DNA from: Elsinoe ampelina
Lineage: Eukaryota
Assembly: GCA_010093995.1 (NCBI GenBank)
Contig: ML992505.1
Span: 62,001 to 126,000 of the forward strand
Direction of reading: 5' to 3'
DNA: 64,000 nucleotides
Shown in pieces: positions 8,601-54,835 of the stretch (positions within the stretch are counted from its first letter, which is position 1; each line of letters opens with the position of its first letter). Position numbers and translations under genes: made by a program. The notes beneath the pieces are model-generated. The model made no database searches. It was not told the origin of the DNA and was given only the letters and a program-made list of their open reading frames with translations.

Positions 8601-11177
8601 CCTGGTCTGCTCTACATGCATCCGGTCACTAGCCTGATCAATGAGGGACGTGGACTGCCGGATGATCTGCACTTGGAGCCGCGGGATTGCTTGAGCCTCT
8701 GGAAGTCTATGCAGAAGCACTCTAGCGACAAGTTTCCTCTGGACAAGTCTCTTGACCCCGCAAAGACCTTACCAGCTATCGTACGCAAGGTCGACATCCT
8801 CAAATGGGAAGCAGACCTCAAAGCTGTGCTCAAAAGTTGGATGTCAGAGCCCGGCTCGCCATTTCATGCCGTCATCGATGAACTTGCAAGGCCGTTACAT
8901 GCCAGCAAGAATGAAGTGTCCTCTATCGACAAGGTCAAGGCTGAAGGAGCATCAAAGGTGGACCCGAATGACCTCCTCAGCACGACACTGCCTCTGCTCT
9001 CCGCATTGAATGCACGTAATGCACTACCTGCCATTCTCTTCAACTACGATCGCACTTTGTGTGAAAAGATCTGCCAGGCCTTGATGGCTCAACTCGGTGA
9101 AGCTCAAGCTGCATGGAAGGCCTCCAGTCCCAAGTGGAAAGCTCAGCTTGACAAGTATGCTAAGTGGAAGAAAGAACAAGAAAAGGTCAAGTTTAAGCGC
9201 CCAACCACAAAGAAGAGTAAAGGACAAGGTGACGAAGACATGTCAAAGGGCGAGCGTGAGAGGGAGGCAGCTGAGATGGAGCAAAATCCTTTTGCTTCCT
9301 TTGATCCAGAAGGTATCGTGGAGGGGTTCTCCTTCGCAAACAACAAAGCTCTGCTCCCATCTGAGTTTGCAGATCTCAAGAGGAAGCTTGAATGGCGCCA
9401 CGTTGCGCCTTGGCTAATCGATGGTCTCAAGCTCGGTATTGGTGTCCATCATGCTGGTATGAATCGCAGCTACCGTCAGGCGGTTGAGACACTTTTCCGC
9501 CGCGGCTTTCTGCGAGTCGTCATTGCTACCGGAACACTTGCCCTCGGTATCAACATGCCTTGCAAGACTGTTGTATTCAGTGGCGACAGTATCTTCTTGA
9601 CCGCTCTCAACTACCGTCAAGCTGCAGGTCGTGCTGGTCGTCGTGGTTTCGACCTGCTCGGGAATGTTGTGTTTCAGAATATCTCCCTGGACAAGGTCTT
9701 TCGACTTGTATCATCACGGCTCCCAGATCTCAACGGACACTTTCCCATCACCACCTCGCTGGTACTTCGTCTTTTTACCCTGCTTCACGATTCTAACGAG
9801 TCGCCATACGCCAAACGAGCCATCACCTCCCTTCTCTCGCAGCCACGTCTCTTCCTTGGTGGAGAGAACTTCAGAGATCAGGTCCTGCATCATTTGCGGT
9901 ACAGCATTGAATACCTGCGCCGTCAGCATCTCATCGCAGCTGATGGTAAACCTATCAACTTCGCCGGCACAGTCTCTCATCTGTACTACACCGAGAACTC
10001 CTCTTTTGCATTCCACTGCTTACTGAAGGATGGTTTCTTCAACAAGCTCTGCGCCAACTACGTACCCAAGGGTAAGAGTGAGGAGCGTATCTTGGAGACA
10101 CTCATGCTTGTCATGGCACATCTATTCGGCCGCCGCTTTTGCCGCCGTGCTGACCAGGAGTTCGTCAATGAGGTGGTCAAGAAACACAGCTCGCACGTCT
10201 TCCTGCCGAAAATGCCCGCAGAGGCGGAGGATAGTCTGCGCAACCACAACGCGGAGACACTTTCAGTCTTCTCTACCTATGTCAAGAGCTTTGCCGAACA
10301 GCATGCCGACAAGCTGGGAGCTGATCATATCCTGCCACTCACTCAGGTCGAAGTCGGAGGGAAGGATACTGGTGCCAAGGTCCCTGAAGGAGTCAAGACC
10401 TTACCTCCGACTACTGTCCGGTCAGCCTTTGTTGCTCTGTCTGGCCACGGCGACAAGTTTGAGACCATCTCTGAGCTTTGCCGCACCGCTCGCTCCGGTG
10501 TATGGCTGGAAGAGGCCGCTATCCCACACGTGGCCCTCTACCCGGATGAAGCTCAGATGCCATTGAACGCCTACCTGTACGACTTCTACAAGCATGGCGA
10601 CGTGGTGACTCTTGAGAAAGCCAATGGTGTTCGTCGAGGAGATGTGTGGTTCCTGCTCAACGACTTTTCCCTCGTCCTTGCCACGATCGTTACGAGCTTC
10701 AAGAACTACATGAACGTTTCTGCCGACGCGGATCTAGAGATGGTCGAAGTCGGCGGTAGCGGTGACATGCATGAACTTGATGAGGATGAGCGTATCGCCA
10801 CGTTCGAGAGCGCGGGTAGCAAGGAAGCTGCCACAAATAAAGGTCTTCCATCTGGTCAAACCAAGGTTGAGCAGACTACCAAGACCTCTGCACCAAGCAG
10901 TGCAGTGCAGAAGAAGAAGACTAAGAAGGTCGTGGCGGATAGCTGGGAAGAGGACGAAGCTGCGCAGTCTGACAGCTCGGTGGCGTCTGACTGGGGTGGA
11001 GACAGTGAGGAAGAAGCGGTGCCGACGAAGGCGAGCACAAGAGCCACATCACCCACTACCACTACAGGAGCGCCGGCCTGGGATGAGGACTCGGGTGAAG
11101 GGTTGAGGAAGGTGGCGCTGGCGTTTGAGGGGTTGAAGAGGAGCTTTGATGAGAAATTCAAGAAGATGTGGGCTTAA
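5679..11177 (+). CDS. Ski2-like DExH RNA helicase, DDX60-like; exons 5679-5722 and 5774-11177
   Basis: APTSAGKT (motif I), PTKALVNQ, DEIH, LSAT, HHAGM, ATGTLALGINMP and QAAGRAGRRG. Intron 5723-5773 (GTATGT..CAG) adds the N-terminal DLIGDYAGSELFLVEGDSL. Confidence 0.9.
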
Positions 11178-11647
11178 AGGTGGCTACCCGATGGCAACTC
11201 GACGGAAGGGAGAGGGAGAGCCTGGAGTGAGAAAGCTGCATCGATTGGTGGTACGGTAGAATGTGGGTGCATGGATTGTGGCTATAGAAAATTGCATGGG
11301 CATGACAAAGCATTGTGGACTGACGATATGGGATCAAGAATGCATGAGACAGAGGATGACACGGAATATGAATGCATAGGTGATTCGATGCGAGTATCCA
11401 GCCGCAACAAAAACGGACCTGTATGTAGATCGATCTCCTCGTCAGCAAATCATTGATCAATGTCTTGTTTCACTTGTGAACTTCTTGACATATCCTGACC
11501 AAAAAGTAAGTTTCGAGGTGTACCATGAGTCACTCGGTCTATCCTATATAACATCATTCATTCCCGGAGTAAACAAAACTTTTCAGACTCTCTCTCATCT
11601 TTAATCCAACCGTATTCCCGATACCTTCCCTACCTGTTCCAAGCATC

Positions 11648-13081: not shown

Positions 13082-14836
13082 TCACGTGCTCTCCTGCTTC
13101 TGCCGTTCAGCGGCTTCTCTCCATCGCTCTGCATAATGCTTCATCGCCCAAAGTGTCACAATTCCACTCAACAACGTCCAGACACCCAGAATGGTGAACA
13201 GCCATCCGTCGCCAATGCCAGTGATGGCTGGCTCGCCCACGATACCTGCTATACAAGAGAAGATGTTCCTGACAAAGTTATTGACAGCGATACCGTGACT
13301 GCTCGTGCTGGGCATGAATTCCGTCAACATGGTCGTGCAACATCCAAAGACAAGCATGGATCCCACGCCAAAGAAGAAATTGGCGATCATGGGCGCTGCG
13401 ATGTGTACACCTTTGCCGGCTGTCCAACCATACCAGACAAGAGCAATGGGGTACATGATAGCAGCAATCCAGACATTCTCTCGCATGCGATCTTCGGGCC
13501 TGAAAATCAGGCGACCGCGCTCATCGACTCGTCCTGCTTTCCGTGCTTCTCGCTTCATGATCCGGTCGACCCAGGATCCACCGAGTATGGAAGCGAGGAA
13601 GTAGCCAACGGAATTGGGAATGTACAATAGACCAACAACGAGGACACTGTAGTTGTATGGAGGCTTGTTGAATGTCTGCTGTAGACTGACGTTCAAGAAG
13701 TAGAGGGAGGCGAAAGTCATGGAAGCGTAGAAGACGGTCAGCGCCACCGGGGGACTGCGGAGATGCAGAATGATCTTCAGCGGGTCGACAAAACAACGCT
13801 GGAACATCTTTGTGTACTTCTTGGCCTTGATAGCAGCACTCTGTCGGGTCGAGCTTCGAGTCAATGTAGGCCGCATAGGTGTACCCTTCTCAGGATCGTT
13901 TGAGGAGGACAACGCAGCGAGAGCATCAGCCTCAGCCGCCGCTTTTATCGACTTTCGATTTCGCAATGTCTCTGGTAGACAGAGCAAGATCAATATCCAA
14001 AGGATGACGCCAAGTACTGCTTGCGACCACAGTGCCGATCTCCAACCAAGAGTTTGGGTCAAGATACCTCCCAAGATAGGAGCCAAGAGTGGTCCGCATA
14101 GAGGGCCAAGATAGAAGTATCCCATGGCTCGTCCTCTCTCCTTGACTTCCCAAACATCAGCCACCGTGCCGGCTCCGACAGCTTGGACAGATGCCGAGGC
14201 ACCGCCAGATAACAGCCGCATGACGATGAACATAGCCATGTTCACTGAGAGGGCGGATAGGATGTTGAAGATCAAGAAGAGAAAGAAGGACGTAATGTAA
14301 ATGGTCCTGCGACCGAGAGTCTCGGAGAAAGAGGACCACCAGAGCGGGAATATTGACATGGCAAGCATGTAGAATGCTACCGACATGTTTCCAATGAAGG
14401 GCGTACTACCGAAATCGTTTACTATTTCGATGAGTCCAGGAAAGACCAGTGTGCTTCCCATGGGCGCTGCCACAGCTGAGAGGGAGACGACGGCGGTAAT
14501 GACCCATTTGTCTCTGTTTGGAAGATCATACGGGTTCTCGACCTCTGGTATGACTGCAAACCTTGCCAATAGCCCTCGTCTTTGGCTTCGTGGTATCTTG
14601 ATGACATCCCTTTTCACACTGCTTGACTTTGATGGTGTCCGCGACAGTGGGGCTGGCTCCTCAAGAGACTCCACAGAGGTCGAGTCGGCCCCCGCTTCGA
14701 CATCTTCGAAAGGTTCCCCATCGTGGCTTGAAAATGTGGTTGTATGGGTGAGGGCCGGCGATGGAGCCGTCACTGACCCGTCTTCGTTTTGCGAATCAAT
14801 CTTGACATCGGACTTGTCTTTGTGTCCTTGGTGCAT
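13082..14836 (-). CDS. MFS drug:H+ antiporter, DHA1 family (Dtr1/Qdr-like)
   Basis: About 12 hydrophobic segments; SETLGRR (motif A), MRLLSG, ADVWEVKERGRAMG, GPLLAPILGG, GWR and PETL. Confidence 0.9.
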   Translation of the reverse strand: MHQGHKDKSDVKIDSQNEDGSVTAPSPALTHTTTFSSHDGEPFEDVEAGADSTSVESLEEPAPLSRTPSKSSSVKRDVIKIPRSQRRGLLARFAVIPEVENPYDLPNRDKWVITAVVSLSAVAAPMGSTLVFPGLIEIVNDFGSTPFIGNMSVAFYMLAMSIFPLWWSSFSETLGRRTIYITSFFLFLIFNILSALSVNMAMFIVMRLLSGGASASVQAVGAGTVADVWEVKERGRAMGYFYLGPLCGPLLAPILGGILTQTLGWRSALWSQAVLGVILWILILLCLPETLRNRKSIKAAAEADALAALSSSNDPEKGTPMRPTLTRSSTRQSAAIKAKKYTKMFQRCFVDPLKIILHLRSPPVALTVFYASMTFASLYFLNVSLQQTFNKPPYNYSVLVVGLLYIPNSVGYFLASILGGSWVDRIMKREARKAGRVDERGRLIFRPEDRMRENVWIAAIMYPIALVWYGWTAGKGVHIAAPMIANFFFGVGSMLVFGCCTTMLTEFMPSTSSHGIAVNNFVRNIFSCIAGIVGEPAITGIGDGWLFTILGVWTLLSGIVTLWAMKHYAERWREAAERQKQEST

Positions 14837-15762
14837 GTTTCGAGCTCCTTCTGGATAGCTATAGCTTCAGCGTAATCGGCAGGACGCTGTATTACTATCT
14901 AGCCGCGGTAGTTTCGATAGGTGTACCTCGCTCTAAGCACTATGTCGTACAATTGCTATGCCCGCGAGTCCAGGGATGAAGGTATACTAGAGTGTCATCT
15001 ATGCGAAGAGATTGAAAGACGAGCAGAGAAAAGGAAATGGTAAACCTAGCGTTCTGTGGTGCCGCATTTTCCGCGTTCACGACTGCAGTTGGAGCACGAG
15101 AATGAGGGGATGATACCGAGCAATTCGCTGCCGACGATCCGGAAATGGGAGCGAGTGAGAGAGTGGGATGAGTGAGCACTCGCCAACGACAAGAAGTCGC
15201 TGCCGTCAGTGCCGGAAAAGAGTTTGGCGTCGGGAGTTTCCCGCCGATCATGCACCTGCATTAACATTTTCAACTTGTCGTAGCCCGAACGAGATCTTGC
15301 CCTCCCTGAACCTCAACTTCATCCAACCTCTTTCCTGCATCTTCCAAATCGCCGTGCTACCACGTGCTGGCAACACGTACGTGGCGGCTCCATGTGCCTT
15401 TTCGGTCATCCTCTTCCGCACGGGTGCATCGTGGTGGAACAAGTATAACGAGATGCCAACGGTGACCCTTCTACGGCCTATCGCAGGGCTGGAACGTCTG
15501 GAATGTCTAGTCTCTTCATCATCGTCAAGTCCTCTTCACGCACTCTGTCTCATTTTGATTCACCGAGGACTGACAGAATAGTCATTGTGGGTCGCATAAC
15601 GGCTCTGGGCACTCGGCTCGCACTGTCATTGTGAGACTGTTCTTGACAAGGTTGGTATATGAAGGCCTGCTCTTCCTCTTTCCTTTCCTATAGTCATTCA
15701 TTCACTAATCGGTTTCGTTTTTCCCTTTCCTTCTTTTCATTCTTTCTTCAGGTCCATCCGGC

Positions 15763-16425
15763 ATGGCACCCCTCTCTTTCCTCGTTCCCCTTTTCCTCTC
15801 AGCGCAGGCGCTTTCCCTCACCATCTCCACCCCTACAACCACCCCGGCGGCGGTACTCACGAGTGCCATTCCGTCCGCCATGACCCCGGCCCCAGCCTTC
15901 ACTCAGACCATTTGCGCCGACAACCTGCACAACTTCGTCGCCCGTCCTCAAGGCACGGAAAAGCGCCGCTTCTTCTGTCCCGGAGTGGTGTCAGGACTTC
16001 ATGGTAACGACATCTCGACCGCCTACTGCTGCATCAACGCCATCTTTCTTCCCGAAGTTCCCATGACCAAGTGGGACTACGCGCACGTCGGCATCGCCAT
16101 CCCCAGCTCCGTCATCCAGCCTTCCTGCGTGCAGCCAATTCCTCTCACGGCTTCCAACTACGATGCTCTTGTCAGCGCCGCCGCACCAGCCATGACAGGT
16201 CCTCAGATTCCAATGGGTACTCCAGGCAGCGAGGTCGAGATCGATGTTGATGTTGGTGCCGTGGCATTTGTCACCAGTGCTTCTGCTCCTGCTGCAGCGA
16301 CCAAGACCCCCTCTTATACCTACACCGGACCATCATACCAGGGCGCCGCAGGAAAGGAGAACAGCAAGCCTATTGTGGCATTAGTGGTAGCAGTCGCCGG
16401 TGCCATGCTAGGTGCAGCCATATAA
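15763..16425 (+). CDS. Secreted, probably GPI-anchored Ser/Thr/Ala-rich protein with a small Cys-containing domain
   Basis: N-terminal signal peptide, Cys pattern C..CPG..YCC..C, S/T/A-rich linker and a hydrophobic C-terminal tail. Confidence 0.7.
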   Translation: MAPLSFLVPLFLSAQALSLTISTPTTTPAAVLTSAIPSAMTPAPAFTQTICADNLHNFVARPQGTEKRRFFCPGVVSGLHGNDISTAYCCINAIFLPEVPMTKWDYAHVGIAIPSSVIQPSCVQPIPLTASNYDALVSAAAPAMTGPQIPMGTPGSEVEIDVDVGAVAFVTSASAPAAATKTPSYTYTGPSYQGAAGKENSKPIVALVVAVAGAMLGAAI

Positions 16426-38852: not shown

Positions 38853-39136
38853 GGTTACTTGCAAATACCAAATATGAATGTGTCAAATTACCACCCAGAG
38901 TGAATGACAGGGGAAGTGCTTCTAATGGCCAAATCAGATCATCAATAGATTACTAGTGAAGGAAAAGAACTGAACACCCGTCTCCTGTGTCAGACTCGCA
39001 TGATCGTTAGAGATTGGGAGGTACTACCAGGCCTGCTGACTTAATCACGTCCGAAGTTATGAACTACCAGAAAAACTTGCACCATCGTGCTAGGATATTA
39101 ATCCGTGTTTGTAAGCATCTCATGCAGTTCGCAATG

Positions 39137-42100
39137 GACGGTGGGATATTGTGACACTTGTCGCAAAACCTTTGGCCGCCTAACCCCTTTTTGGCGTTAC
39201 AACACCGCATTAGGATAACTTCATGAACAATCATTATATAGTATTAAAAATAATATCAATTGTCTTCTCTCCTTACGCTGATTATAATGATATTAATTTT
39301 GGATCAATTGTATAAGGTAGTAGTTATAATGTTATTATTATACTAACTACTCTAGAGAGGTAACTAGGTAGATATAAGAGCTATACTAAACTATCGAGTC
39401 TAAGCTCTAACACTAGTAGTAGCCTTAGATACTACTAACTAGCGTTAAATTACGACGATAAGCTTACTCCTAGCTTACTAATTAATTATATAATTAATAT
39501 TAAGATATTAGGGAAAGGTCTCTATACTACCTCTATAAGGTAGACTTATTAAACCGCTAAGTAGTAGTAAGCTACTAATGCTATAGTAAGGACTACCGCT
39601 TTAGCTAGAGAAGAGCTCTAAAAATAACTCGTATAAGTAGTATCTAACTATCCCTAGAGTTATAATTTAGTTATAATTCTACTACGATTTAGAGGCTTAC
39701 TATTTTTGTAGCTTCGATAACTAATAGCGCTACCCTAAGACTAGTAACGAGTAAGACTTCTAGTACGTCTTAGATAATAAGTAGCGTACTCTTCGCCTTA
39801 TACTAGAGGCTACTAGAAGTAATAGTAAGGTAAAGAAGATAGCCTTAACTAGTATCTACTACATAGTATACGCTAGTAAGATTATAGAGATAGAGAAGAG
39901 AGAGCTAGCTCTAAATCCGTACCGATAGTATAGTTATAAGGCTAAGAATAATTAAGATATAGCGGCGTATTAAGTCTAGAAGGAGAAGAGTAAGAGTAAG
40001 TTATATAGGTACTACGTAAGGGAGAGTAAGGATTATTATATAGCGCTAGCTAGCGAATCGTCTAGAGAATTATAGAGCAAATCGTAAGAAACTATAGGTC
40101 TAAAGAAACGTATTATAGACTTAGAGCTAGCGTTAGTAAAGGCTCTAAGTAAGCTAGAGGACTAGAGGGCTAGAATTACGAGGCTTAAAGCCCTTATAGA
40201 GCTAGAGAAGAAGGAGGGGGAGAGGGGGGAGAGAATAGAGAGAGTTAAGAAGATAGAGAGGTTACTAGTACTACTAGAGAATAAAGCTAAGGAATTATAA
40301 TTATAAACTAGAATAATTAGCGTAGCGTTCGGTTATATTATAATACCTAAGGAGTAAATTAAGGCCTTTCTTACTATCTATCTACCTTTTATTATATCTT
40401 CTCTATTAGCTTAGTCCTCTACCTACTTCTCCTAATACTTACTACTTATAGATTATTTAGTATACTACCCTAGAAGTCTCCTAGCTATATAATATTTATA
40501 TCTAGTAATTGTTCTTAATAAGAGTAATCGATCTAGCTATAATATACCTACTTTCGTTACGTAGTAGTAGTAGTAGTAGTAGATATAGCTCTTAGAGGCT
40601 TCTCTAAGAGTAGGTTAGTCTCTATAGAGTTAAAGACGTAGAAGTAGTTAGATAGTATTAGAGTTAGAAGAGTACTCTAACTCCTAGATTTAGTTACTAT
40701 AGTTAGTTCTATCTATTAAAAGTCGCTAGTACTTAAATCTATAATAGTAAAAGAGGTCGGCGGTTAGTTTAAATTAACTATCTATAATAGCTAACTCTAC
40801 TCGTCCTTAATATTAACTTCTTAACTTAGCTTAGTTATCTTAGCTAGTAGTGCTAGCGTAAAGGCTAGAGAAGCGTTAGCGTTATAGTTAATAAACTTCG
40901 TCTCGAACTAAGTAAGTCTACTAAACGATAGTTTATATTACAATTTATACTACGATTTAAGCTATAATTCTTAGAGTAATTCTCGCTTTACGATTTTCTA
41001 AAGCCTTACTTTAATTATAGAGCGTAAGTAAGCGTAGATTAACGTAGTAATCTCTACTAAAGAGTAACTAGTAGGTCGCTTAAACGCGTAGCGAGATAGC
41101 TCGCTAGATAGATATTAAGCTAAGGTAGGGGTATAGTCGAGAGCTAGGCTAAGATCTAGGTTAGAATCTAGGTCGGAATCTAGTTTATTATCTAGTTTAC
41201 GATCTAGATCGCGAGCTAGATACCTTAAAGAACCTCTAGATAGATAAGAAGCTATCTAGTTCGCGTGCCGAGATAGAGTATAAGATAATACGCAAGATAA
41301 TACGTAAGATAGGGCATAAGATAGAGTATAAGTTAGTATATAAGATAAACCCCTAGATTACGATTTAGAGGCGATTAAGCTACGATTCGTAGATAGCGCC
41401 CTTATACGCCTTTAGAAGATAGGTACCTCCTCTACTAGCTACTCTATAACCTTACTACTCCGATACTTATATATAAGCTTAATATTACGCTTCCTACTAC
41501 TACTACTACTAGTAGTTCTAAAGGCCTCTAGGAGATCCTCGAGGTACTCCCTCTCTAAGGTATTTCGTACTAGCTAGATAGGCTTATTAAAATAGTTAAA
41601 CTTATTAACGAGGTAGTAGTCTACGTAGCTCTCGAATATACTTTAGCTATACTACTAAGGATTAAAATAGACTTCCTTCTCGGAGTAATAGGCTAATAAG
41701 TCTCGTAACTAGTAGCGATAGTTTAAATTACCAACTAGAATCGTAGGGAGTATAGTATCTAACTATAGCGTATTATTATAAGTATCGAGAAGAGCCTTCT
41801 TATAGACTAATTTACCGTCTAAGGTCTTTCTATGTATTACCTTCTATATCTTAATAGCTATACGCGTTAACTACTTTACCTTCTTTACTAGTTAAGCTAT
41901 AGGCCTCGTAGCCTTCGATTTTAAGGCTACTATATAGGTAGTAGGTAGTAGCTTTATTACTCTATTACAATAAAGGTTAGTAGTAGTAATAATATAGCTA
42001 ATAGACTAATTCGAGCCCTAAGATAACGAGGCTTATAAGGCTAACGATAAGAGAACTGTAGGTAGAGGTATAACTAGAGAAGAGCAAGTAGAATTACTAC

Positions 42101-44328
42101 GACTTATAGTACTAACTCGCTAATAGACAACCGATATCTAACGCGTCGACGAGGTTAGCGCGGCTATTAATTCTCGCTAGAAAGGCTGTTTACTACTACG
42201 ATAGAAAGGATTAATTACGTCGTAGAACCTATACTTTATATAATTCTTAATTATATTATTATAGGAGAAGGCTATTAGCGTAACTAGGTAAGGAGCTACC
42301 TAAAGGTTAGTAATTAAAGCTATAATAAATAGAAAGGCAAAAGAGGTAGAATAGAAACATAAAACAAATAAGGGGACGCCTTTTTATATTAGTAATTACT
42401 AGTATAGGTACGCCGAGTCGTTAGTACGATTTACTTAGCGATTCTAGTAGCCTTCTCCTCCTAAACCTTTAAAAATTACTCTAATAGCGTAAACGAGCCT
42501 TATTAACTACGATCGAGTATATATAGATAGTCTAATTTATATAGAATAGGCTTAATGCCTATTATAAAATAAAATTAAACTTCGTTATAGAGATACTAGT
42601 AAGTAGTAATATATACTTTATTACTATTATTATAAATAGTTACACTGTTAAAATTAGTAAATCTACTAGCCTTAAGTACGCTTAAACACTACTAAAGAGT
42701 AGAAGTAGGTAGGCATTTATTAATGTCTAGTAAGTAGTAAGTATATAATTTATTAGCGATTCTATATATAAGTTACTTACTAAAATTTTCTATAACTTTC
42801 TAGTGTCCTTTAATTAACTTAATCGGCACTAGAATACTACTATATATCTCTCCTTAATACTCTAGATAATCGTAATTAAGCTCTAGTATCTCTAGTATTA
42901 TCTATAGCCTTCTCCTTAACTAATTATAGATACTCTAGTAGTTATAAGTCTAAGTAAATATTACTACCTCTTACTATATAATTAGTATATATACTATAAG
43001 GAAGGTAATCTAATCTAACTTAGAGGAGGTAATAAAGCCTTAATTAGCTACTAAGTCGATAAAGTAAGCTCTCTAAGGATCTAGCTATTATACCTACTAG
43101 CTCTAGTATACCTTAATCTACTAGTTTAAGCGTAATGTTCTATACCTAAAGTAGTCTTTAAAGCTTAAGGGCCCTCTAGACTTATCTACTATAGACTTAA
43201 TCTCTTGTCGAAGGTCGTAATAGAGGTTAGTAACTTAGATAGTCTCGGCGCTATAGTCTATAACGAGCCTTATTAGTATAACGCCTCTAGTAGTAATAGT
43301 AGCGAGATACTAAGTAGCGACTAAGCGCTAAGTCTATCTAGATATACTATAATAGATCTAGATAAACTATCGTAACTAAGCGTTAATTACACTATATATC
43401 TAAATCCCCTAATACTCGAACTTATAGTAAGTATCTAGATACTATATAAAATTAAGCTCTAAAGGATACTAAATTACTTAATCGACTCGTACGTAGTAGC
43501 AATAGTACTTAAAATTCTCTAGATAGAGGAATCTAGTAATTTCTACTATACGGCAACTATATAAGGCTTTAGCGATTCCTTTAGCGATTTACCCCCTTCG
43601 AATCGTACTTATATTCTAACGATATTATACCTTACTTATATATATATATATATATTATCTCTCGACTATAAGTCTTAATACTACCTTACTCGTACTTATA
43701 CTATAGTACCTCTAGTATTGTAGCGTCCCTATGCTCTTTATCGCCGTCGCTACGGCCTATCTACTTATATAGGCCTATATCGTAGTAAATTTACTAGAGT
43801 ACTCTTAGGTTAAGTTTATAGCTATTGTCTTAAAGGTAGCTAAGTATATAAGAGTCGTCGATGTAGTAATTGTAGAAGTACCTCTATATATCGTCGCGGA
43901 GCGCTAGGGTGTCCTTAGCCTTTAGGAAGGCTAATATTCTCTAATCCTTTATCTATTGTATAAGGGTACCTCTACTAATACTAATACTATACTCTTCTTA
44001 AAGCTTCTTAACTACCTCGTCCCTAGTAAACTACTCTAAAGATATCTACTCCGTAATAGTTAGCTACTAGTTGTCGAGGTTAATTACTAGTCGAGGTATT
44101 GTTTATATAGGCTAAGAAAAGTTTTAGAGCGTAATTATATAACTAACAATGTAAAACTTATAATGAAAATTATATCAAACAATAGAGAATTCTGTTCTTA
44201 GTAACCTATAATTAATGCGATGTAATAATAATCGATATTAGTGAAGTTGTCCGTTTTAGTAATGTAATCCATCCTAATGCGGAGTGCGCCGAAGAGTTTT
44301 GCGACAAGTGTCACAATATCCACCCATA
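39137..44328. mobile_element. RIP-inactivated DNA transposon-like element (~5.2 kb) with terminal inverted repeats
   Basis: Perfect 26-bp TIR GGATATTGTGACACTTGTCGCAAAAC at 39144-39169 and 44296-44321; CAATG direct repeat at 39132-39136 and 44329-44333; AT-rich interior with a strong TpA excess and CpA/TpG depletion; no ORFs in the track. Confidence 0.88.
41141..41354. repeat. Two 12-bp-period tandem arrays inside the RIP element
   Basis: Seven units with a CTAG core at 41141-41224 and seven AGATA-type units at 41271-41354. Confidence 0.75.
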
Positions 44329-44479
44329 CAATGTGCCCCTCTTGTGGAGACCTCGATGTTGATTGACAGTGACATCACTGCAGGGCGGATTCTGTCCGCC
44401 CCTGACGTCCATTGCAGCTAAGCTCAGCTAAGTATCGGTACGCCCAAAGTGCCATTCTCTTTTGTCTTCTGTTCTGTCA

Positions 44480-45463
44480 ATGTTTCGTACTCCCATCTTA
44501 AGACTGCAACAGACAGCACGTCAATTCTCGAGAATACTACCAGATACGCTCATCAAAGACATGTCTCGCCCCACCGGATTGATCGCCAACAAGGGCCTTG
44601 AGCTCCTCACATTTGGTACTCCTAATGGTGTCAAGGCCTCGATCATGCTTGAGGAGCTCAAAGAGGCTTATGGGAAGGACTACGTGTTCCAGAGTATCAA
44701 CATTATGGAAAATATCCAGAAGGAGCCCTGGTTCACCAAGCTCGGGCCAAACGGTCGTATTCCTGTACTTGTCGACCATGACAAGGGCGGCATTGGGATC
44801 ATGGAGGGCGGAGGTATGCTTTAGGATGTGAGATACACATGCTCGTCGTCGCTGATCGCAGTTTAGCCATCCTCTCGTATCTGACCCGAAACTACGACCC
44901 TGACCACAAATTCGCCTATACCGAAGACCCACAGCTGTCCTACCAAGAGCAATGGGTGTACTGGCTCCAATCAGGATTAGCTCCGATGCAAGCTGAGTAT
45001 CATCGTCGTCGTTATTGTGTAATCTTTGCTGATAGCCGATCCAGGCCAGGCGAATCACTTCTACCGGCTCGCCAAGGAACGCATCCCATACCCCACTCAG
45101 CGATACGTGGGCGAGACTGAGCGTCTGTACGGTGTGCTGGACAAGCAGCTGGAGGGTAAGCAATATGTACTGGGCGACAAGTACACCATTGCAGACATTG
45201 CCAACTTCAGCTGGGTGAATATCTCATACTTTAGCGGGGTCGACCTTACCCAGTTCCCCAACTTGCACAAATGGTGGGAGAGGATCAATGCGAGACCAGC
45301 GGTGAAGCGCGGCGTGGCGATTCCGAGCGAGAGCAAGCTAGTCAATACTGCCTATCAAGAGAGGCTGAAGACGGAGCCAGAGTTCAAGGAGCAGGAGGAT
45401 AAGTTGAAGGACCTCGGCAACAAGGCCAAGGAACAGTACAACTACAAGTACTCAAGTCCTTAA
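44480..45463 (+). CDS. Glutathione S-transferase (Ure2/YfcG-like), with a possible mitochondrial presequence; exons 44480-44813, 44867-44992 and 45045-45463; alternative ATG at 44561
   Basis: TPNG, LEEL, PNGRIPVLVD, GLAPMQGQANHF, ETERLYGVLD, YTIADIA and RPAVKRG; intron 2 is non-canonical. Confidence 0.9.
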
Positions 45464-48625: not shown

Positions 48626-49260
48626 CTAGCTCTGATTCTGAGGTAAGAAGATGAACTGGCCGGCGACCGCGGCACAAATCACTATGAGCAATGTGGTGTA
48701 CTTGTTGGTGAACCGATAGAGGGACGCAAGCGTAAGAAGATACAGTACCGCCGCCGGACCGCTGTCGGAGACCCGATCTGCGAGAGCAGTATCTGCCGAG
48801 CCTGCGACGCTGGAATGCAGAAATTGAGCCGCTATGATGGCGATGACGCCGATGACGGCACCGCAGAGACCGTCGAAGAAGGCGGAAAGGAACTAGATAC
48901 CATCAGCTTGCGATCTGGGCCGGGGATGACAGATGGAACGCACATTATTCCTGACCAGTTTCTCCAGTAGGCTATGACCGGCGATGGTGAGGAGGAAACA
49001 AGGGAAGAACATGCCCAAGGTGATGATGACTGCGACAGCAAAAGCATGACCTAACCCGCCGTCCATTAAATCCTCCTTGGAAGCCAACGAAGGTGACGAA
49101 TATGACCAGTGGTGCCGGCAGGATGTTACCGATCGCGATAGCATCGAGGCCAACGTTTTGACTGAGCCAGCCTTCCCGCACTACGGCCTCTACCTGCACG
49201 AATGGTATAGCAGTGTAGGCGCCACTCAAATGAAGGACAAGACAGTGCAGATAGCACAGT
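48626..49260 (-). pseudogene. Truncated and frameshifted chromate ion transporter (CHR family), C-terminal half only
   Basis: GAYTAIPF, GWLS, LDAIAIGNILPAPLVIF, FFDGLCGAVIGVIA; intron 48893-48943 is intact; frameshifts near 49070 and 49230; no N-terminal half recognised; the 5' boundary is approximate. Confidence 0.75.
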
Positions 49261-50185: not shown

Positions 50186-50522
50186 TCATTGTAGACTTTA
50201 TCTAAAACTTCATGCTGGCCTTACCATTGTTTCAGCATAACCGACGTAGTGACCGACGTAGTGGGCGCTGTTCGTTCCTACACCCGCCATTGTACTGTCT
50301 TACTTGGTCCATGGGTCTCCAGGTATGAATCGTCATGCATACTCTCAACCCAGCCGTTGCGACGTTGAAGCATTGGCTGGCCGAGGGATTCTATGGTCAA
50401 TAGATTATGTGATATCCAGTTGAGCAGTGATGGTATCAGTACAGATGGGTTTTCATATGTACTGCATCGTTCGAGACTACCAAAATGTTCCACACAACAT
50501 CAACGCTGAGCCTGCAATCATC

Positions 50523-52009
50523 TCATGATCTCCTTGCTCCCGGCTGTGACGACGAGCTTGCTGATGCATCCCGAAGAGCCAGAACTTCTCTTCTTCTCTT
50601 CTCATAGTCCAAGGCAAGCTCATCCGTGCTGTCTGATCCGAAGGACGTATTGGTATTGGGCATGGCCATGTGATTGGCGTCCCGGATAAAACGATCCCGG
50701 TGCCTCAAGCAGAATTGTCTCGCGTTGTAGAGCGCTGCGACTCCAGCTTGGAATTGTTCCAGCTTGTTGTACATGATGAAGGCGTCCAGCTGAGTCATCT
50801 GGTAGGACATGAGGCCTCTGTGGTTGATGAAAGGATGCATGGAGAACATGGTTAGTGTGTTGGCCGCATAAGTGAACATGATGGTGTACGCATTATTGTC
50901 GCACCGTCGTTCGGCTGGGATGTTCTTGTAGTTTTGCAGCTCGAACATCGCTCTTGCACCTATAGCACCGTCATGGAGAGCCTGCAAAAGGGCGACATCT
51001 GGGCGACCGGGCCCGTATTTTCCTTCGAAGAAGAAGTTCGGCGCAGCTGGAAGACTGTCGTTCGAACAAGGAATGATGAGTTTGTTGAGGTCTTTCCGAA
51101 CACTTTCATGGATGCTTTCCGTGAATGCTCCAGCATAGAAATCTGGCTTTGGGCGGGTTACGTGATTCCGGATCGGCTTGATATTGTTAAAGAGCTTGTC
51201 AGCGCTCTGATTCTCCTGCGGATCCTGTGGTCCCATCATTTTGATGACAACGTCCGCCATGACGAGGACTTCGGCAGAGTGACCAGGCAGACCCTTAAGG
51301 TACTCTTTGAATCCCTCGACGGTAATGGTGTGCGGAGAAGAGCAAGGCAGTGGCACCGTCAAAGCATTCTGCATCTCTTCAAAATTCCCCGGAATCGGAG
51401 CCGGCCTTCCCTCCCCGTGCTGATAGTCCGCAGGATATACCCCGGCATCGATCATCATCTGCTTGAAAGCTGCATCATAAGTTGAGGTCGCTTTCGATTT
51501 GGATTCGTTGACGACATTTTCAATTGCTGGAGTCCGAGCAGCCACAGGCTGGCCTCTTCTGCGGACCCTGGAAGTCGAGTCTGTCATGTCTTGCTTCGGA
51601 CGCAAAGTCCTGGCGTACTGTGCTGATAATCAGTATCGAGACTCGAAATTCATGCAAGCGATGTGTGCGCTCGATAACTCACCCCACGAAGACTCGTCAA
51701 GCATATACCTCTTCTAACGGTGATATCGCGCAGAGCTATCGCAACAGAAAACTGTAGTGGACCTTGTACTGGCGTGCTGGGTGCATGCGCTAAGCTCTGA
51801 GGGCGTCGTCGATTGAATTCCCGCAAGGACGAGCGTGTCAAGGGTACTTGGGTCAACGAGTTCCAGAATGTTGTGTCAAGCGCGTGGCGGCAGTGCGAAC
51901 CCAGTGGTGAAGTACGCCGTTCACGCTTCCTGATGTCTGGAGTGGCAAGAAGATCGAGCGAAGAACTCCGCTGTCTTTTACGATGATGACCAGGTCGTGG
52001 TACGGCCAT
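50523..52009 (-). CDS. Fungal protein with a putative PD-(D/E)XK restriction-endonuclease-like domain; exons 52009-51683 and 51617-50523
   Basis: N-terminal FWNSLTQVPLTRSSLREFNRR; RPKPDFYAG, PNFFFEGK, LQALHDGAIGARAM, DNNAYT and YQMTQL; intron 51618-51682 (GTGAGT..CAG) is in frame. The gene call is firmer than the fold call. Confidence 0.7.
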
Positions 52010-52138
52010 GACGCGGGATTGAGATGAGGAAGAAAGGATGCTGTTGATCCCAGCGAGGACAATGCGCAGAGGGCGCTAAAGGAGCCAATCTATAGGTGCC
52101 GCGTCAGAGGCATGCTTTACCTTGTGATACGCCCCTGT

Positions 52139-52180
52139 GTTTGTGTAACAGTTGACCTCGACCCTTGGGATTACACAAAC
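52139..52180. promoter_or_regulatory. Perfect 10-bp inverted repeat in the divergent intergenic spacer
   Basis: GTTTGTGTAA (52139-52148), 22-nt spacer, TTACACAAAC (52171-52180). Confidence 0.55.
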
Positions 52181-52275
52181 CTCCACCGGTCCGCCCGGCC
52201 GATATTTCTTGAGACTTCATACCCTCGACGAATAGATGAAGTGGTCAGACAGTTCGGGCGACCTTGCTGACGATA

Positions 52276-53317
52276 ATGGATCCATTTATCCAGAAGATGT
52301 GCGAGCGTCGAGTAGGCGGAAGGTATCAATTAATCGAGCACATAGGAGAGGGAGGCTATGGTGCTGTTTACAGAGGTCAGCCCTACCGTGTGATGCCATA
52401 AATCAACCTCATCCGTTGACTCTGCAATAGCGATGGATGTTGTCGATGATCGAGAAGTTGTATTGAAGCTGGAGCATCACTCGACACCGTTCTGCTCCAT
52501 AAGCCAAGAGGTCGATGCATATAATGAAGTCGCAGGAAACACTGGATTTGCAGAGGTATACTGGCTCGGTCAGCAAGATGATTTTGACGTTCTGGCTTTC
52601 GAGCTGCTGGGACCGAGCCTCACAGACTTGTTCGTCTACTGTGGTGGGACCTTTTCTCTAAAGACGGTGCTTCTCATCATGGATCAGCTGCTCGAGAGAT
52701 TCCGCGTCATTCATGAGCATGAAATCGTCCACCGAGATGTCAAGCCATCCAATTGCTTGCTTGGCGCTGGCGAGAAAAGTAATACCTTGTTCGTCACAGA
52801 TTTTGGTCTATCTCTTCTCACTGGTCGAGGTGACGGAGATGACCCTGAAGAACAAGCCAGCAGCACGCCAAGAGCTGTAGGCACCGCCTATTTCGCAAGT
52901 ATACGTGGCCACGATGGCAGGGCCCAAATGGCAGAAGATGATCTAGAGGCTCTCGGACACATGATGATCTACTTTCTCAAGGGAAGGCTACCATGGTCGA
53001 ACGGGCCTCATCTCACCGATAGTGCTGCAGAGAATCAAGCACTATTAACAGAAAAGCTGTCGGTGAGTTCTGAAGAGCTTTGCGAAGGGTTGCCGGAGGA
53101 GATACTGGAATACATGAAGCTAGTCAGGAATATACCTAATGGTCCGAAAGCTCCTGATCACACACATCTCCGAGATGTACTGCGTCGCTTGAGTCGAAGA
53201 AAAGGTATCGAATACGACGACGTGTATGATTGGACGATCCGAAGGTTCCATGAGGTTTATGGAGTTGGAGACGAACTTGAACTCACGAAGCAAACGCAGG
53301 AGCTTGCCATCAGGTGA
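52276..53317 (+). CDS. Divergent casein kinase 1 family Ser/Thr kinase; exons ~52276-52375 and 52431-53317
   Basis: Exon 1 supplies IGEGGYGAVY; VVLK, ELLGPSL.DLF, FSLKTVLL, HRDVKPSN, DFG, GTAYFAS, DDLEALG and LPW; intron 52376-52430; start codon uncertain (52276 or 52297). Confidence 0.88.
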
Positions 53318-53662
53318 TCTCACCCTGCGCACGGATCATCAGTTCAAACCGAGTTTTTTAAAAAAAAAAAGAAGCGGTTGTCCGACCGACAGCTTGGCGT
53401 AAACAGTGACGAAGTGCGGGGATCGACATGGTACCAGCCTCCTCGCCAACCACCTATTCCAGTCAGAAAGCACCAGCCACAGCAGGATACCATCTCTCAA
53501 CTTCCTGGACGTCTACATTCTACCGTTTCACACTTTTCAACGTCCACAACACTCTGCTCATCTCATAACGATAACAACCCTCGCTCCAACGACGTCCCCT
53601 CACTTCAACGCCTGCACTGACTTTCTCACCACCAGCTACGGCTTCGGCCTAGCTTGATCGTC

Positions 53663-54835
53663 ATGGCTCCAACAGCACTCACTCCCGAGCTGGTCTCTCA
53701 CCTCACCTCTCGCCATACCCCTCTCCTCAAAAGAGCTGCCGCTCTCCTCTCCTCCACACACACCCTAGTCGAAAGGGCAAACCCAACACCCACACCGTGG
53801 CAGAAATGCAAGGGCTGCCGCTCGCCTGACAGCATCAACAACCGTTTCTACTTTGCCCTCTTCGCCATCCTCGGTATCGCCATCGTTGCCGGCTCCATTT
53901 GGTTCTTCTTCTTTGCCCGCAACGGTGGCTTCCAATACGAAGAAGGCGACTGGGAAGACTACAAGACCGCCGTCCTCCGCCGCAAAGGCCCCGATGGCAA
54001 GACCGTCGTCTCCTCCCGCTCCGCCCGCAGCGTCAAGACAGGCATGACCCGCCAAGAAGAGAAATGGGAACAAGCCCGCTGGGCCGCCATGTCCGTGGTC
54101 GCCCGGGACGAGAAAGGCCGCAAGGGCATCCTCGCCAAACGCGGCTGGGGCGGCACCCACAGCTGCACCTACCGCGACGACTTCACGCAATACGACGGCG
54201 GCGACCGCCGCTACGAGATGACCGAAGTCGGCTCCCTCCCAGACTACGACATGCCCATTCCCTCCAGCAAGAAGCCCAAAACCTCCCACAACAAAGAAAA
54301 GAAATCCTCGTCCAAGAAACACTCCGTGCCAGGCGCATGGGACATCGACTTCGAAGCCTCCCGCCCCACTCCCCCGGCCCACGGGCACCACTCCCGCCGC
54401 TACGCCGACCGCGACCAAGACGTCCGCTCCTACGCCCACGAGAAACCCGCTCGGGTGGGGGGCATGAACCGCGCCGCGGACGGGTCACACATGGACTTTT
54501 CCGGCTCGGAAGTCAGCAGTTCCGCCGGGCGATCGTCGCAGGACCCGCGCCACGCGAGGGCGGAGAAGCGCGTGCTCACCGAAGCGGAGAAGATGGAGCG
54601 GCAGTGGAGGAGGGAGGCGCGGCGGGCGGCGAGGGAGTTGGAGAAGGGCGAGGCCAGTCAGAGTCAGGGGAGTAGTAGGACGAGTAGTCCTATCAAGCGA
54701 GGGGGTGCAGGGGCGGGAGGGCAGAGGAGGACGCCGAGTCCGAAGAAGAGGGACGCGGGCAGGCAGGGGAGGGAGTATAGTTTCTCCAAGCCAGAGGGGG
54801 ATAGTTATTTGAATGCTTATAGGCCGGGGAGGTAG
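53663..54835 (+). CDS. Single-pass membrane protein with a disordered cytoplasmic tail, function unknown
   Basis: One strong TM (FALFAILGIAIVAGSIWFFFF) followed by ARNGGF..DWEDYK.AVLRRKGPDGKT; strong codon bias. Confidence 0.78.
   Translation: MAPTALTPELVSHLTSRHTPLLKRAAALLSSTHTLVERANPTPTPWQKCKGCRSPDSINNRFYFALFAILGIAIVAGSIWFFFFARNGGFQYEEGDWEDYKTAVLRRKGPDGKTVVSSRSARSVKTGMTRQEEKWEQARWAAMSVVARDEKGRKGILAKRGWGGTHSCTYRDDFTQYDGGDRRYEMTEVGSLPDYDMPIPSSKKPKTSHNKEKKSSSKKHSVPGAWDIDFEASRPTPPAHGHHSRRYADRDQDVRSYAHEKPARVGGMNRAADGSHMDFSGSEVSSSAGRSSQDPRHARAEKRVLTEAEKMERQWRREARRAARELEKGEASQSQGSSRTSSPIKRGGAGAGGQRRTPSPKKRDAGRQGREYSFSKPEGDSYLNAYRPGR

Follow-up and report, generated by a model that had tools for sequence, protein, structure and literature searches.

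Described nuclease–kinase pairs and the Elsinoe ampelina locus

The coupling of a restriction-endonuclease-like (REase) nuclease to a kinase is known from the Spok meiotic drivers of Podospora (Spok1-4) and from many Crinkler effectors, and in both cases only within fused proteins whose mechanism is unsolved. In the stretch of Elsinoe ampelina DNA analysed here (64,000 nucleotides of contig ML992505.1, assembly GCA_010093995.1, positions 62,001 to 126,000 of the forward strand; referred to below as the window, in whose own numbering positions are given), a protein of the Pfam family DUF7924 with a predicted PD-(D/E)XK nuclease fold and a casein kinase 1 (CK1)-like kinase are encoded by two separate genes, gene A (50523-52009, minus strand) and gene B (52276-53317, plus strand). 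The first-pass annotation of the window had described two intact, divergently transcribed genes on either side of a 266-bp spacer, and the coordinates and translations agree with it, the splice of gene A being seen and the intron of gene B predicted. The same pairing recurs in other fungi, and the locus is read here, with a little more confidence than an even chance would give, as one copy of a conserved accessory two-gene nuclease–kinase module of filamentous ascomycetes with a role in genetic conflict, the conflict role being the weakest step of that reading.

Spok proteins are the closest described system. The Spok passages drawn on here report that in Spok3 the nuclease substitution K240A abolishes killing, and that the kinase substitution D667A is toxic unless the wild type is present; in the same passages the authors propose that the kinase may inhibit the nuclease, and place it nearer to eukaryotic-like kinases, Kdo kinase for example, than to protein kinases. 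The present locus resembles Spok in coupling a kinase with a nuclease of PD-(D/E)XK type in an ascomycete. In Spok, however, a coiled coil, a cysteine cluster and a kinase domain share a single polypeptide, whereas the module consists of two separate genes, and its kinase, unlike that of Spok, is a genuine eukaryotic protein kinase of CK1 descent. When the two systems are compared by architecture, a cysteine cluster is also not evident in gene A.

In the relevant part of a review of Crinklers, the combination of REase and kinase accounts for about one sixth of Crinkler C-termini, the REase being proposed to be toxic and the kinase being thought to regulate it. What the first-pass annotation had stated on Spok and Crinklers matches these source passages. 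In the module an REase-superfamily domain is likewise paired with a protein kinase, but, when compared by description, Crinklers are single fusion proteins that carry an N-terminal header and are secreted or translocated, whereas the module comprises two cytoplasmic- or nuclear-looking proteins. General Pfam scans of the module proteins, in which no header model was searched specifically, gave no Crinkler header fusion. The review cites Zhang et al. 2016 in this connection.

Prokaryotic type II toxin-antitoxin systems and restriction-like defence nucleases also have an REase-fold nuclease with a tightly linked partner gene, and the predicted fold is structurally similar to the nuclease domains of BpuSI, DrdV, HsdR, NucC, Can2 and McrC; in contrast to these systems, the genes described here are intron-bearing eukaryotic genes, and the partner is a protein kinase and not a methyltransferase or a binding antitoxin. 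Canonical CK1 enzymes (Hrr25/CK1-delta and Yck/CK1-gamma) carry the same family signatures as gene B, whereas gene B, with about 330 aa, has almost no C-terminal tail and belongs to a separate fungal clade outside the two-member core CK1 set of model ascomycetes.

In a literature search with most subscription journals outside its coverage, the pairing was not described anywhere found. No function, fold or kinase partner was on record there for DUF7924; its sole mention was in the Neurospora crassa pangenome study, which lists it among the most copy-variable families of that species. PADLOC had no family for DUF7924, and the kinase matched only its generic Ser/Thr-kinase models.

Recurrence and co-divergence of the pair

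Both proteins carry consecutive accessions in E. ampelina (KAF2223964/65), Cercospora zeae-maydis (KAF2211405/06) and Capronia epimyces (XP_007735525/24), and these species span two classes of fungi. Metagenome contigs were also scanned with a DUF7924 alignment, yielding 80 loci that form 58 clusters at 90% nucleotide identity or more, and kinases at these loci were detected by tblastn with three kinases. A CK1-like gene was present at 20 of the 80 loci, corresponding to 15 of the 58 clusters, and its distance to the DUF7924 match was always 556-1992 bp. A large share of the loci are too short to inform; when the count is limited to clusters flanked by 2 kb or more on each side, 7 of 17 were linked, and with 2.5 kb or more, 5 of 15. 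As an internal control, flank beyond 3 kb (195,651 bp) gave no CK1-like hit, whereas flank within 3 kb (173,617 bp) gave 15. On these counts the recurrent nuclease–CK1 pairing far exceeds chance, and the proposal of the first-pass annotation withstands the linkage check that it had itself suggested.

The orientation of the pair varies while its adjacency is kept: 11 clusters are divergent, as in the window, and 4 are tandem, which requires at least three changes on the DUF7924 tree. No third gene common to the module was found among 12 linked loci; additional shared 'families' that appeared at linked loci turned out to be antisense open reading frames (ORFs) lying over the DUF7924 and kinase genes themselves. 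The partners have also diverged together. Distance matrices of DUF7924 and kinase, computed over 18 pairs, are correlated with r=0.70, a value reached in none of 5000 permutations (0/5000), and the nearest neighbours of the partners agree in 8 of the 18 pairs. Protein divergence among linked loci ranges from 15 to 68%.

On the trees, the metagenomic loci L008 and L010 adjoin Knufia proteins, and L043, L049 and L052 adjoin a Madurella protein; the latter position suggests, by inference, that Sordariomycetes also carry the pair. Among the accessions listed for Friedmanniomyces, Fonsecaea and Knufia there were no further accession-adjacent pairs.

A neighbourhood that arose by chance or was merely inherited, with no functional coupling, would be in keeping with the frequency of bidirectional gene pairs in compact fungal genomes and with those clusters that have ample flank on both sides and still lack a kinase. 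This explanation is extremely improbable, given 15 independent locus clusters plus three named species in two classes, a more distant flank empty of kinase hits, the absence of any other shared neighbour, the retention of adjacency through at least three orientation changes and the correlated divergence of the partners; the 15-68% protein divergence argues in addition against one recent lineage. Because the recurrent linkage is real and strong, it is considered very likely that DUF7924 and the CK1-like kinase constitute a functional two-gene module whose products would act together. Tight linkage and co-inheritance, which are expected of a toxin-antidote pair, are both observed here.

The DUF7924 protein and its predicted nuclease core

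Gene A (minus strand) starts with an ATG at 52009-52007 and encodes a 473-aa protein in two exons. Exon 1 (51683-52009) covers residues 1-109, with a basic N-terminus containing HHRKRQR and the motif FWNSLTQVPLTRSSLREFNRRR, while exon 2 (50523-51617) covers residues 110-473 and the stop codon and contains the entire DUF7924/restriction-endonuclease-like core. The intervening intron (51618-51682) is of 65 nt, GT..AG and in phase 0, in agreement with the annotated E. ampelina protein P0004 (473 aa), to which the product is identical. In run X1, one contig joins 51617 to 51683, skipping the 65 nt with ends that read CT..AC on the plus strand, and X1 contigs span 50398-52139 over gene A. This one spliced joint is the reason for treating X1 as transcripts, its RNA origin being otherwise a guess; runs X3 and X4 gave no contigs here. 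The locus is transcribed, and gene A is spliced.

DUF7924 (PF25545) was the only family reported for gene A at E values up to 1 (E=1e-5 for exon 2); its profile scored 25.7 bits with exon 2 and 24.8 bits with the full-length protein, just below the curated gathering threshold of 27. Homology to many PF25545-carrying proteins is unambiguous and spans about 300 residues. A word-indexed search with the gene A protein returned 109 hits, most of them with precomputed PF25545, and the match to P0006, a 'DUF7924 domain-containing protein' of C. zeae-maydis, has E=2.7e-59; in the alignment, gene A has every conserved block of the DUF7924 homologues. An exhaustive search returned 1515 representatives at E<=1e-3, and 241 of these reached E<=1e-30. 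The hits with a named source, about a quarter of the 109, are nearly all from ascomycetes, and one is assigned to the oak Quercus suber.

An AlphaFold2 model of gene A built from 45 sequences has a mean pLDDT of 74.8, with residues 150-430 mostly above 90. The core elements of the model, namely helix 225-237, strands 245-247, 269-273 and 300-308, helix 315-337 and strand 354-360, follow the canonical alpha-beta-beta-beta-alpha-beta order of the REase fold. The placement of the putative catalytic residues was read from the secondary structure of the model rather than by superposing residues on a known active site: D268 marks where strand 2 (269-273) begins and E307-x-K309 where strand 3 (300-308) ends, while E225 belongs to the helix before the core strands and Q321 to the helix after them. 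The predicted catalytic-motif codons, from D268 to E307-G-K309, occupy 51018-51143 on the minus strand. Within them, P267-D268 of PKPDFY corresponds to 51146-51141 (D268 to 51143-51141) and E307-G-K309 of FFFEGK to 51026-51018; LQALHDG is also present in the translation, and all three motifs named in the first-pass annotation are thus accounted for. Across 308 homologues, counting at each column the sequences with a residue there, conservation is 275/291 for E225, 294/304 for D268, 262/308 for E307, 294/308 for K309 and 290/307 for Q321. The catalytic set E225, D268, E307-x-K309 and Q321 is apparently complete in gene A.

Structural comparison of the model with 48,161 chains by VIA-align gave 50 rows, the majority of which are REase-fold proteins, with Z scores of 9.3 for the BpuSI nuclease domain (147 aligned residues; root-mean-square deviation (rmsd) 3.8), 8.5 for DrdV, 7.1 for TT1808, 7.0 for HsdR, 5.9 for EcoRI and 5.5 for NucC; SgrAI, Can2 and McrC are also among the rows. 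Foldseek with the full-length model was weak (best E 6.7e-4, TM about 0.3) and pointed to the REase fold likewise. Sequence and profile searches of solved structures returned chance-level matches only, to ribosomal S12 (E 0.067) and to an ESAT-6-like protein (E 0.26), and the nearest named cluster in the ESM Atlas was PDDEXK_12 (0.89), which is taken as a lead only. From the model and these matches, the DUF7924 core has a restriction-endonuclease-like, PD-(D/E)XK fold with a conserved catalytic motif, and the proposal of the first-pass annotation thus withstands its own check on the fold.

The top of the VIA-align list calls for caution as to activity. It is held by two mitoribosomal proteins (Z 11.4 and 10.5), which we take to be the REase-like but non-catalytic mL37 and mL65, so that the fold alone is no proof of activity. 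These matches would suit an inert REase-fold scaffold, in which DUF7924 would serve as adaptor or substrate and the kinase would be the effector of the module, and so would the persistence of the family although 46 of 308 homologues have another residue than E307 (A in 30 of them). It is nevertheless hard to explain without catalysis why 94% or more of homologues keep each of E225, D268, K309 and Q321, and 85% keep E307, and bona fide nuclease domains, those of BpuSI and DrdV, match with a better rmsd (3.1-3.8 Å). An inert scaffold is therefore regarded as improbable, and a catalytic REase-like core is preferred.

Outside the core, the motif FW..LS...LT..AL.E.DRR and the basic cluster of exon 1 are common to long-form homologues such as P0011, P0027, P0058, P0064 and P0096. 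AlphaFold2 confidence is low over the exon-1 region, and the N-terminal 126 residues are largely disordered. The basic N-terminal cluster, judged from its composition, is a likely nuclear signal.

Close to the C-terminus of gene A (window about 50590-50620) is GSDSTDEL, an acidic Ser/Thr motif of the SDTSxDEL type, which occurs in 92 of 228 full-length DUF7924 homologues whose tail is 25 aa or longer. The S-x-x-S/T spacing within it presumably fits the preference of CK1. The motif was considered as a kinase-specific feature and rejected: among full-length proteins with such a tail, it is present in 82/203 of E307 type and in 8/12 of A307 type, and therefore does not track the kinase.

The CK1-like kinase

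Gene B (plus strand) encodes a 328-aa protein. Exon 1 (52276-52375), with its ATG at 52276, encodes MDPFIQKMCERRVGGRYQLIEHIGEGGYGAVYR and supplies the first base of the next codon; it is followed by a predicted intron of 55 nt (52376-52430; GT..AG, phase 1) and by exon 2 (52431-53317), which contains the kinase core with VVLK, HRD (52730-52738), DFG (52799-52807) and ASIRGH, a short tail and the stop codon at 53315-53317. GEGGYG is present as well, and the N-terminus MDPF(I/V)Q is common to P0114, P0139 and P0129. Only about 27 residues follow the conserved DWTIR motif, and the catalytic residues are kept, as in the first-pass description of a compact CK1 with almost no tail.

Removal of the intron is needed for the junction GAVYR|AMDVV that is found in the annotated protein P0113 and in homologues, and the intron position recurs, with tblastn matches splitting at residue 33/34 in L002, L041 and L051. 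Against this, the sole X1 contig over the intron (52253-52558) retains all 55 nt, and for this reason the splicing of gene B is deduced and not seen. Intron retention, DNA carry-over or a low-depth assembly artefact could lie behind the unspliced contig. A retained intron would cut the protein short after 41 residues.

The Pkinase profile of Pfam matches exon 2 alone with E=3.2e-14 and P0113 with E=1.7e-20. In an alignment of 44 sequences, E53, D129, N134, D150 and G152 are invariant and K39 is present in at least 90%. The CK1 signatures ELLGPSLTDLF, HRD.KP.N, DFG and ASI in place of APE (ASIRGH) are all found, and identity to animal and plant CK1 is 36-39%. In a tree of 135 rows, the window kinase and 17 other DUF7924-linked kinases fall in one fungus-only clade of 97 rows (support 99), apart from 21 CK1 sequences of animals, plants and oomycetes; this tree was built with FastTree only, and named fungal Hrr25 and Yck sequences lay outside the set. 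The kinome papers count two CK1 genes each in Aspergillus nidulans, N. crassa and Fusarium, and since model ascomycetes have only these two, the paired kinase clade is accessory. By its residues and tree position, gene B appears to be a catalytically intact kinase of CK1 descent that is not of the canonical Hrr25 or Yck type. The term 'co-opted CK1' used at first therefore holds as regards the CK1 lineage, although the enzyme belongs to a separate fungal accessory clade and not to canonical Hrr25/Yck.

The public kinase model P0113 is spliced at its 3' end (window 53250-54221) into another frame of the ORF of the next gene (53621-54835). This 3' end is doubtful, and the same tail in P0114 of Elsinoe batatas is probably a shared mis-annotation. 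Since the tail is common to both models, the kinase and its right neighbour are syntenic in the two Elsinoe species. Elsewhere in the accessory clade, Friedmanniomyces endolithicus has many copies or fragments (P0116, P0126, P0131 and P0146), with clusters of 12-17 members, several of them partial.

Kinase-less copies, E307A and Elsinoe batatas

A number of observations weigh against the reading of the locus as a conserved conflict module. A kinase is missing from ten of the 17 clusters that have 2 kb or more of flank on each side, the metagenomic loci come without taxonomy, and the peptide pattern used for retrieval allowed only E or A at position 307. Judged by listed locus tags or accessions, the best DUF7924 match does not neighbour the best kinase match in Cercospora zeina, Fonsecaea spp., Pyrenula, Lineolata and Friedmanniomyces. 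A fused DUF7924–kinase protein was found neither among 10 long homologues scanned with Pfam nor among 5 'longer' hits, which is weak evidence. A predicted complex of kinase residues 1-301 with DUF7924 residues 119-473 scored 0.00 and, having been run without controls, is not evidence either way.

The distribution of kinase-less copies bears on the same question. Of the 9 informative unlinked rows on the DUF7924 tree, 8 belong to a single clade of 27 rows (support 95), and outside this clade the informative rows are 16 linked versus 1 unlinked. The kinase-poor clade mostly has A at position 307: A307 occurs in 7/9 unlinked versus 2/18 linked rows (Fisher p=0.0012). Loss of the predicted catalytic glutamate in a kinase-less clade is a prediction of a model in which the kinase guards an active nuclease, but it counts as about one event, because phylogenetically independent contrasts of E307 against linkage (3-4 pairs, none informative or in the same direction) give the association no support. 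Exceptions run both ways as further points against: the linked loci L011 and L041 have A307, and the unlinked L057 and E. batatas P0005 keep E307.

E. batatas offers the closest comparison, and it too speaks against a strict pair. Its closest DUF7924 protein, P0005 (66% identity, intact, with E307), is 86 locus tags away from the closest kinase, P0114, on the same contig; P0114 is almost the same as the window kinase over its first 187 residues, and about 80 C-lobe residues are replaced or missing. Either this species has split the pair and its kinase is in decay, or P0005 is a paralogue. Unless the latter holds, an active nuclease may persist without an intact neighbouring kinase. The two Elsinoe species also contrast in that the kinases are near-identical over 187 residues and the DUF7924 proteins (P0004/P0005) only 66% identical, which reflects either a fast-evolving nuclease or paralogues.

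Several kinase-less loci have suggestive neighbours. L057, which keeps E307 and has no kinase within 10 kb, has a DUF3435 gene in three ORF pieces on the same strand directly upstream of its E307-type DUF7924 (7105-8954 and 10388-11632); DUF3435 is the family of the Starship 'captain' tyrosine recombinases. At L028, a head-to-head pair of DUF7924 copies has a HET-ankyrin gene and a further ankyrin protein in its vicinity (6966-7583 minus, 9866-11107 plus, 13732-16401 minus). A TPR_10 protein is found beside the kinase-less DUF7924 of L022, and DDE_1 and PDDEXK_12 genes beside that of L077. In L069, L072 and L074, the DUF7924 copies have 14-19 stop codons and sit in repeats of about 35% GC that are at least 12 kb long and 88-91% identical. 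L069 and L074 have at least 12 kb in common at about 90% identity. These three loci represent a large degraded repeat family that holds an E307A-type DUF7924 copy.

All of this bears on a strict toxin-antidote selfish element, in which DUF7924 would be a lethal nuclease and the kinase its antidote, and which would bias its own inheritance, for instance through killing of spores or nuclei that lose it, as in a split analogue of Spok. The first-pass annotation had read the locus in this way, with spore killing, allorecognition or defence as candidate functions. The intact REase-fold motif beside a dedicated, tightly linked and co-inherited kinase fits such an element, as do the identity of the kinase-less clade with the E307A clade, the variable copy number with degraded multi-copy relatives, and the one copy directly downstream of a DUF3435 gene, presumably of the Starship 'captain' family. 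According to the Spok passages cited above, killing by the nuclease domain and protection by the kinase domain offer a precedent. Against such an element, the pair co-diverges across classes like a long-resident gene pair and not like a freshly transferred one, E. batatas has an intact E307 DUF7924 with no adjacent kinase and a disrupted annotated kinase, L057 keeps E307 with no kinase within 10 kb, and the E307A association is a single event. The surroundings of the window copy are also unfavourable: it lies in normal-GC DNA among housekeeping genes, its neighbours including a glutathione S-transferase (GST), a methylcrotonyl-CoA-carboxylase-like biotin carboxylase and an arginyl-tRNA synthetase, and no flanking terminal repeats were found at 47-57 kb, where only low-complexity GA-rich matches occur. 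A strict element of this type is judged rather unlikely, and a selfish toxin-antidote role for the pair in general, plausible by analogy with Spok and Crinklers, would be equally doubtful. The bolder extension, a large and so far unrecognised split family of 'killer nuclease' and 'protective kinase' across Pezizomycotina that would be the two-gene counterpart of Spok, in which the kinase would hold an active nuclease in check in carriers and loss of the pair would be punished, and from which lineages would escape through E307A and then loss of the kinase, may be entertained with the same low expectation.

Possible function of the nuclease–kinase module

Within the functional module favoured here, the kinase would control the predicted nuclease by phosphorylation, restraining or licensing it, as is thought for the fused Spok and Crinkler proteins. 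By analogy, such control is the likeliest mechanism, and its chances may be put at about even. The final step of the proposal is that the module would serve in genetic conflict, whether as toxin-antidote, defence or selfish element, rather than in core housekeeping. This conflict role is favoured because of the variable copy number, the degraded multi-copy relatives and the neighbouring HET, NLR-like, transposase and DUF3435 genes.

An ordinary, non-selfish function would require a lineage-restricted DNA-processing nuclease, acting in repair, recombination or genome defence and timed by a CK1 paralogue through a bidirectional promoter. Canonical CK1 (Hrr25) acts in DNA repair and meiosis, which speaks for such a function, together with the deep co-divergence and retained adjacency of the partners, the basic N-terminal clusters that suggest a nuclear location, the housekeeping neighbourhood in the window and the presence of both genes in transcript-like X1 contigs. 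It is less easily reconciled with the absence of the kinase clade from the kinomes of model ascomycetes (2 CK1), the highly variable copy number, the pseudogenised, repeat-borne copies and the many DUF7924 genes without a kinase nearby, and is tentatively placed among the less probable explanations.

Under the preferred reading of a conserved accessory module, DUF7924 would gain a fold with a probable active site as well as a functional partner, and an accessory CK1 clade would be defined outside the kinome surveys of model fungi. As the two activities would be separable in a two-gene version, the idea that a kinase restrains a nuclease could be tested cleanly, with a kinase of ordinary CK1 type and more than 1,000 diverged members of the nuclease family at hand. 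If the module is truly a toxin-antidote or defence system, fungal conflict elements would gain a widespread further class; should it prove to be a regulated nuclease of repair or recombination, it would still amount to a new pathway.

Spacer and genomic surroundings

The 266 bp between the two divergent ATGs (52010-52275, with no strand of its own) presumably represent a shared promoter region. X1 contigs extend over both edges of the spacer (51908-52139 and 52253-52558).

To the left of gene A, no ORF of 170 aa or more is present at 48.03-50.52 kb, and the sole family hit is a 56-residue chromate transporter fragment (48972-49259, minus strand). The chromate transporter match and short overlapping ORFs in other frames together occupy 48626-49259 on the minus strand, a stretch that may be a decayed gene or a multi-exon gene. 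The neighbours on this side had initially been called decayed, which the lack of long ORFs confirms only in part.

About 6 kb to the left of the module, an AT-rich block (39000-44500) has a GC content of 30-36%, versus about 52% around it, and contains no ORF that reaches 130 aa; it resembles a repeat degraded by repeat-induced point mutation (RIP). Further to the left, at 5763-11174 on the plus strand, the window contains an ORF of 1804 aa with a DDX60-type PIN-like domain and DEAD/Helicase_C.

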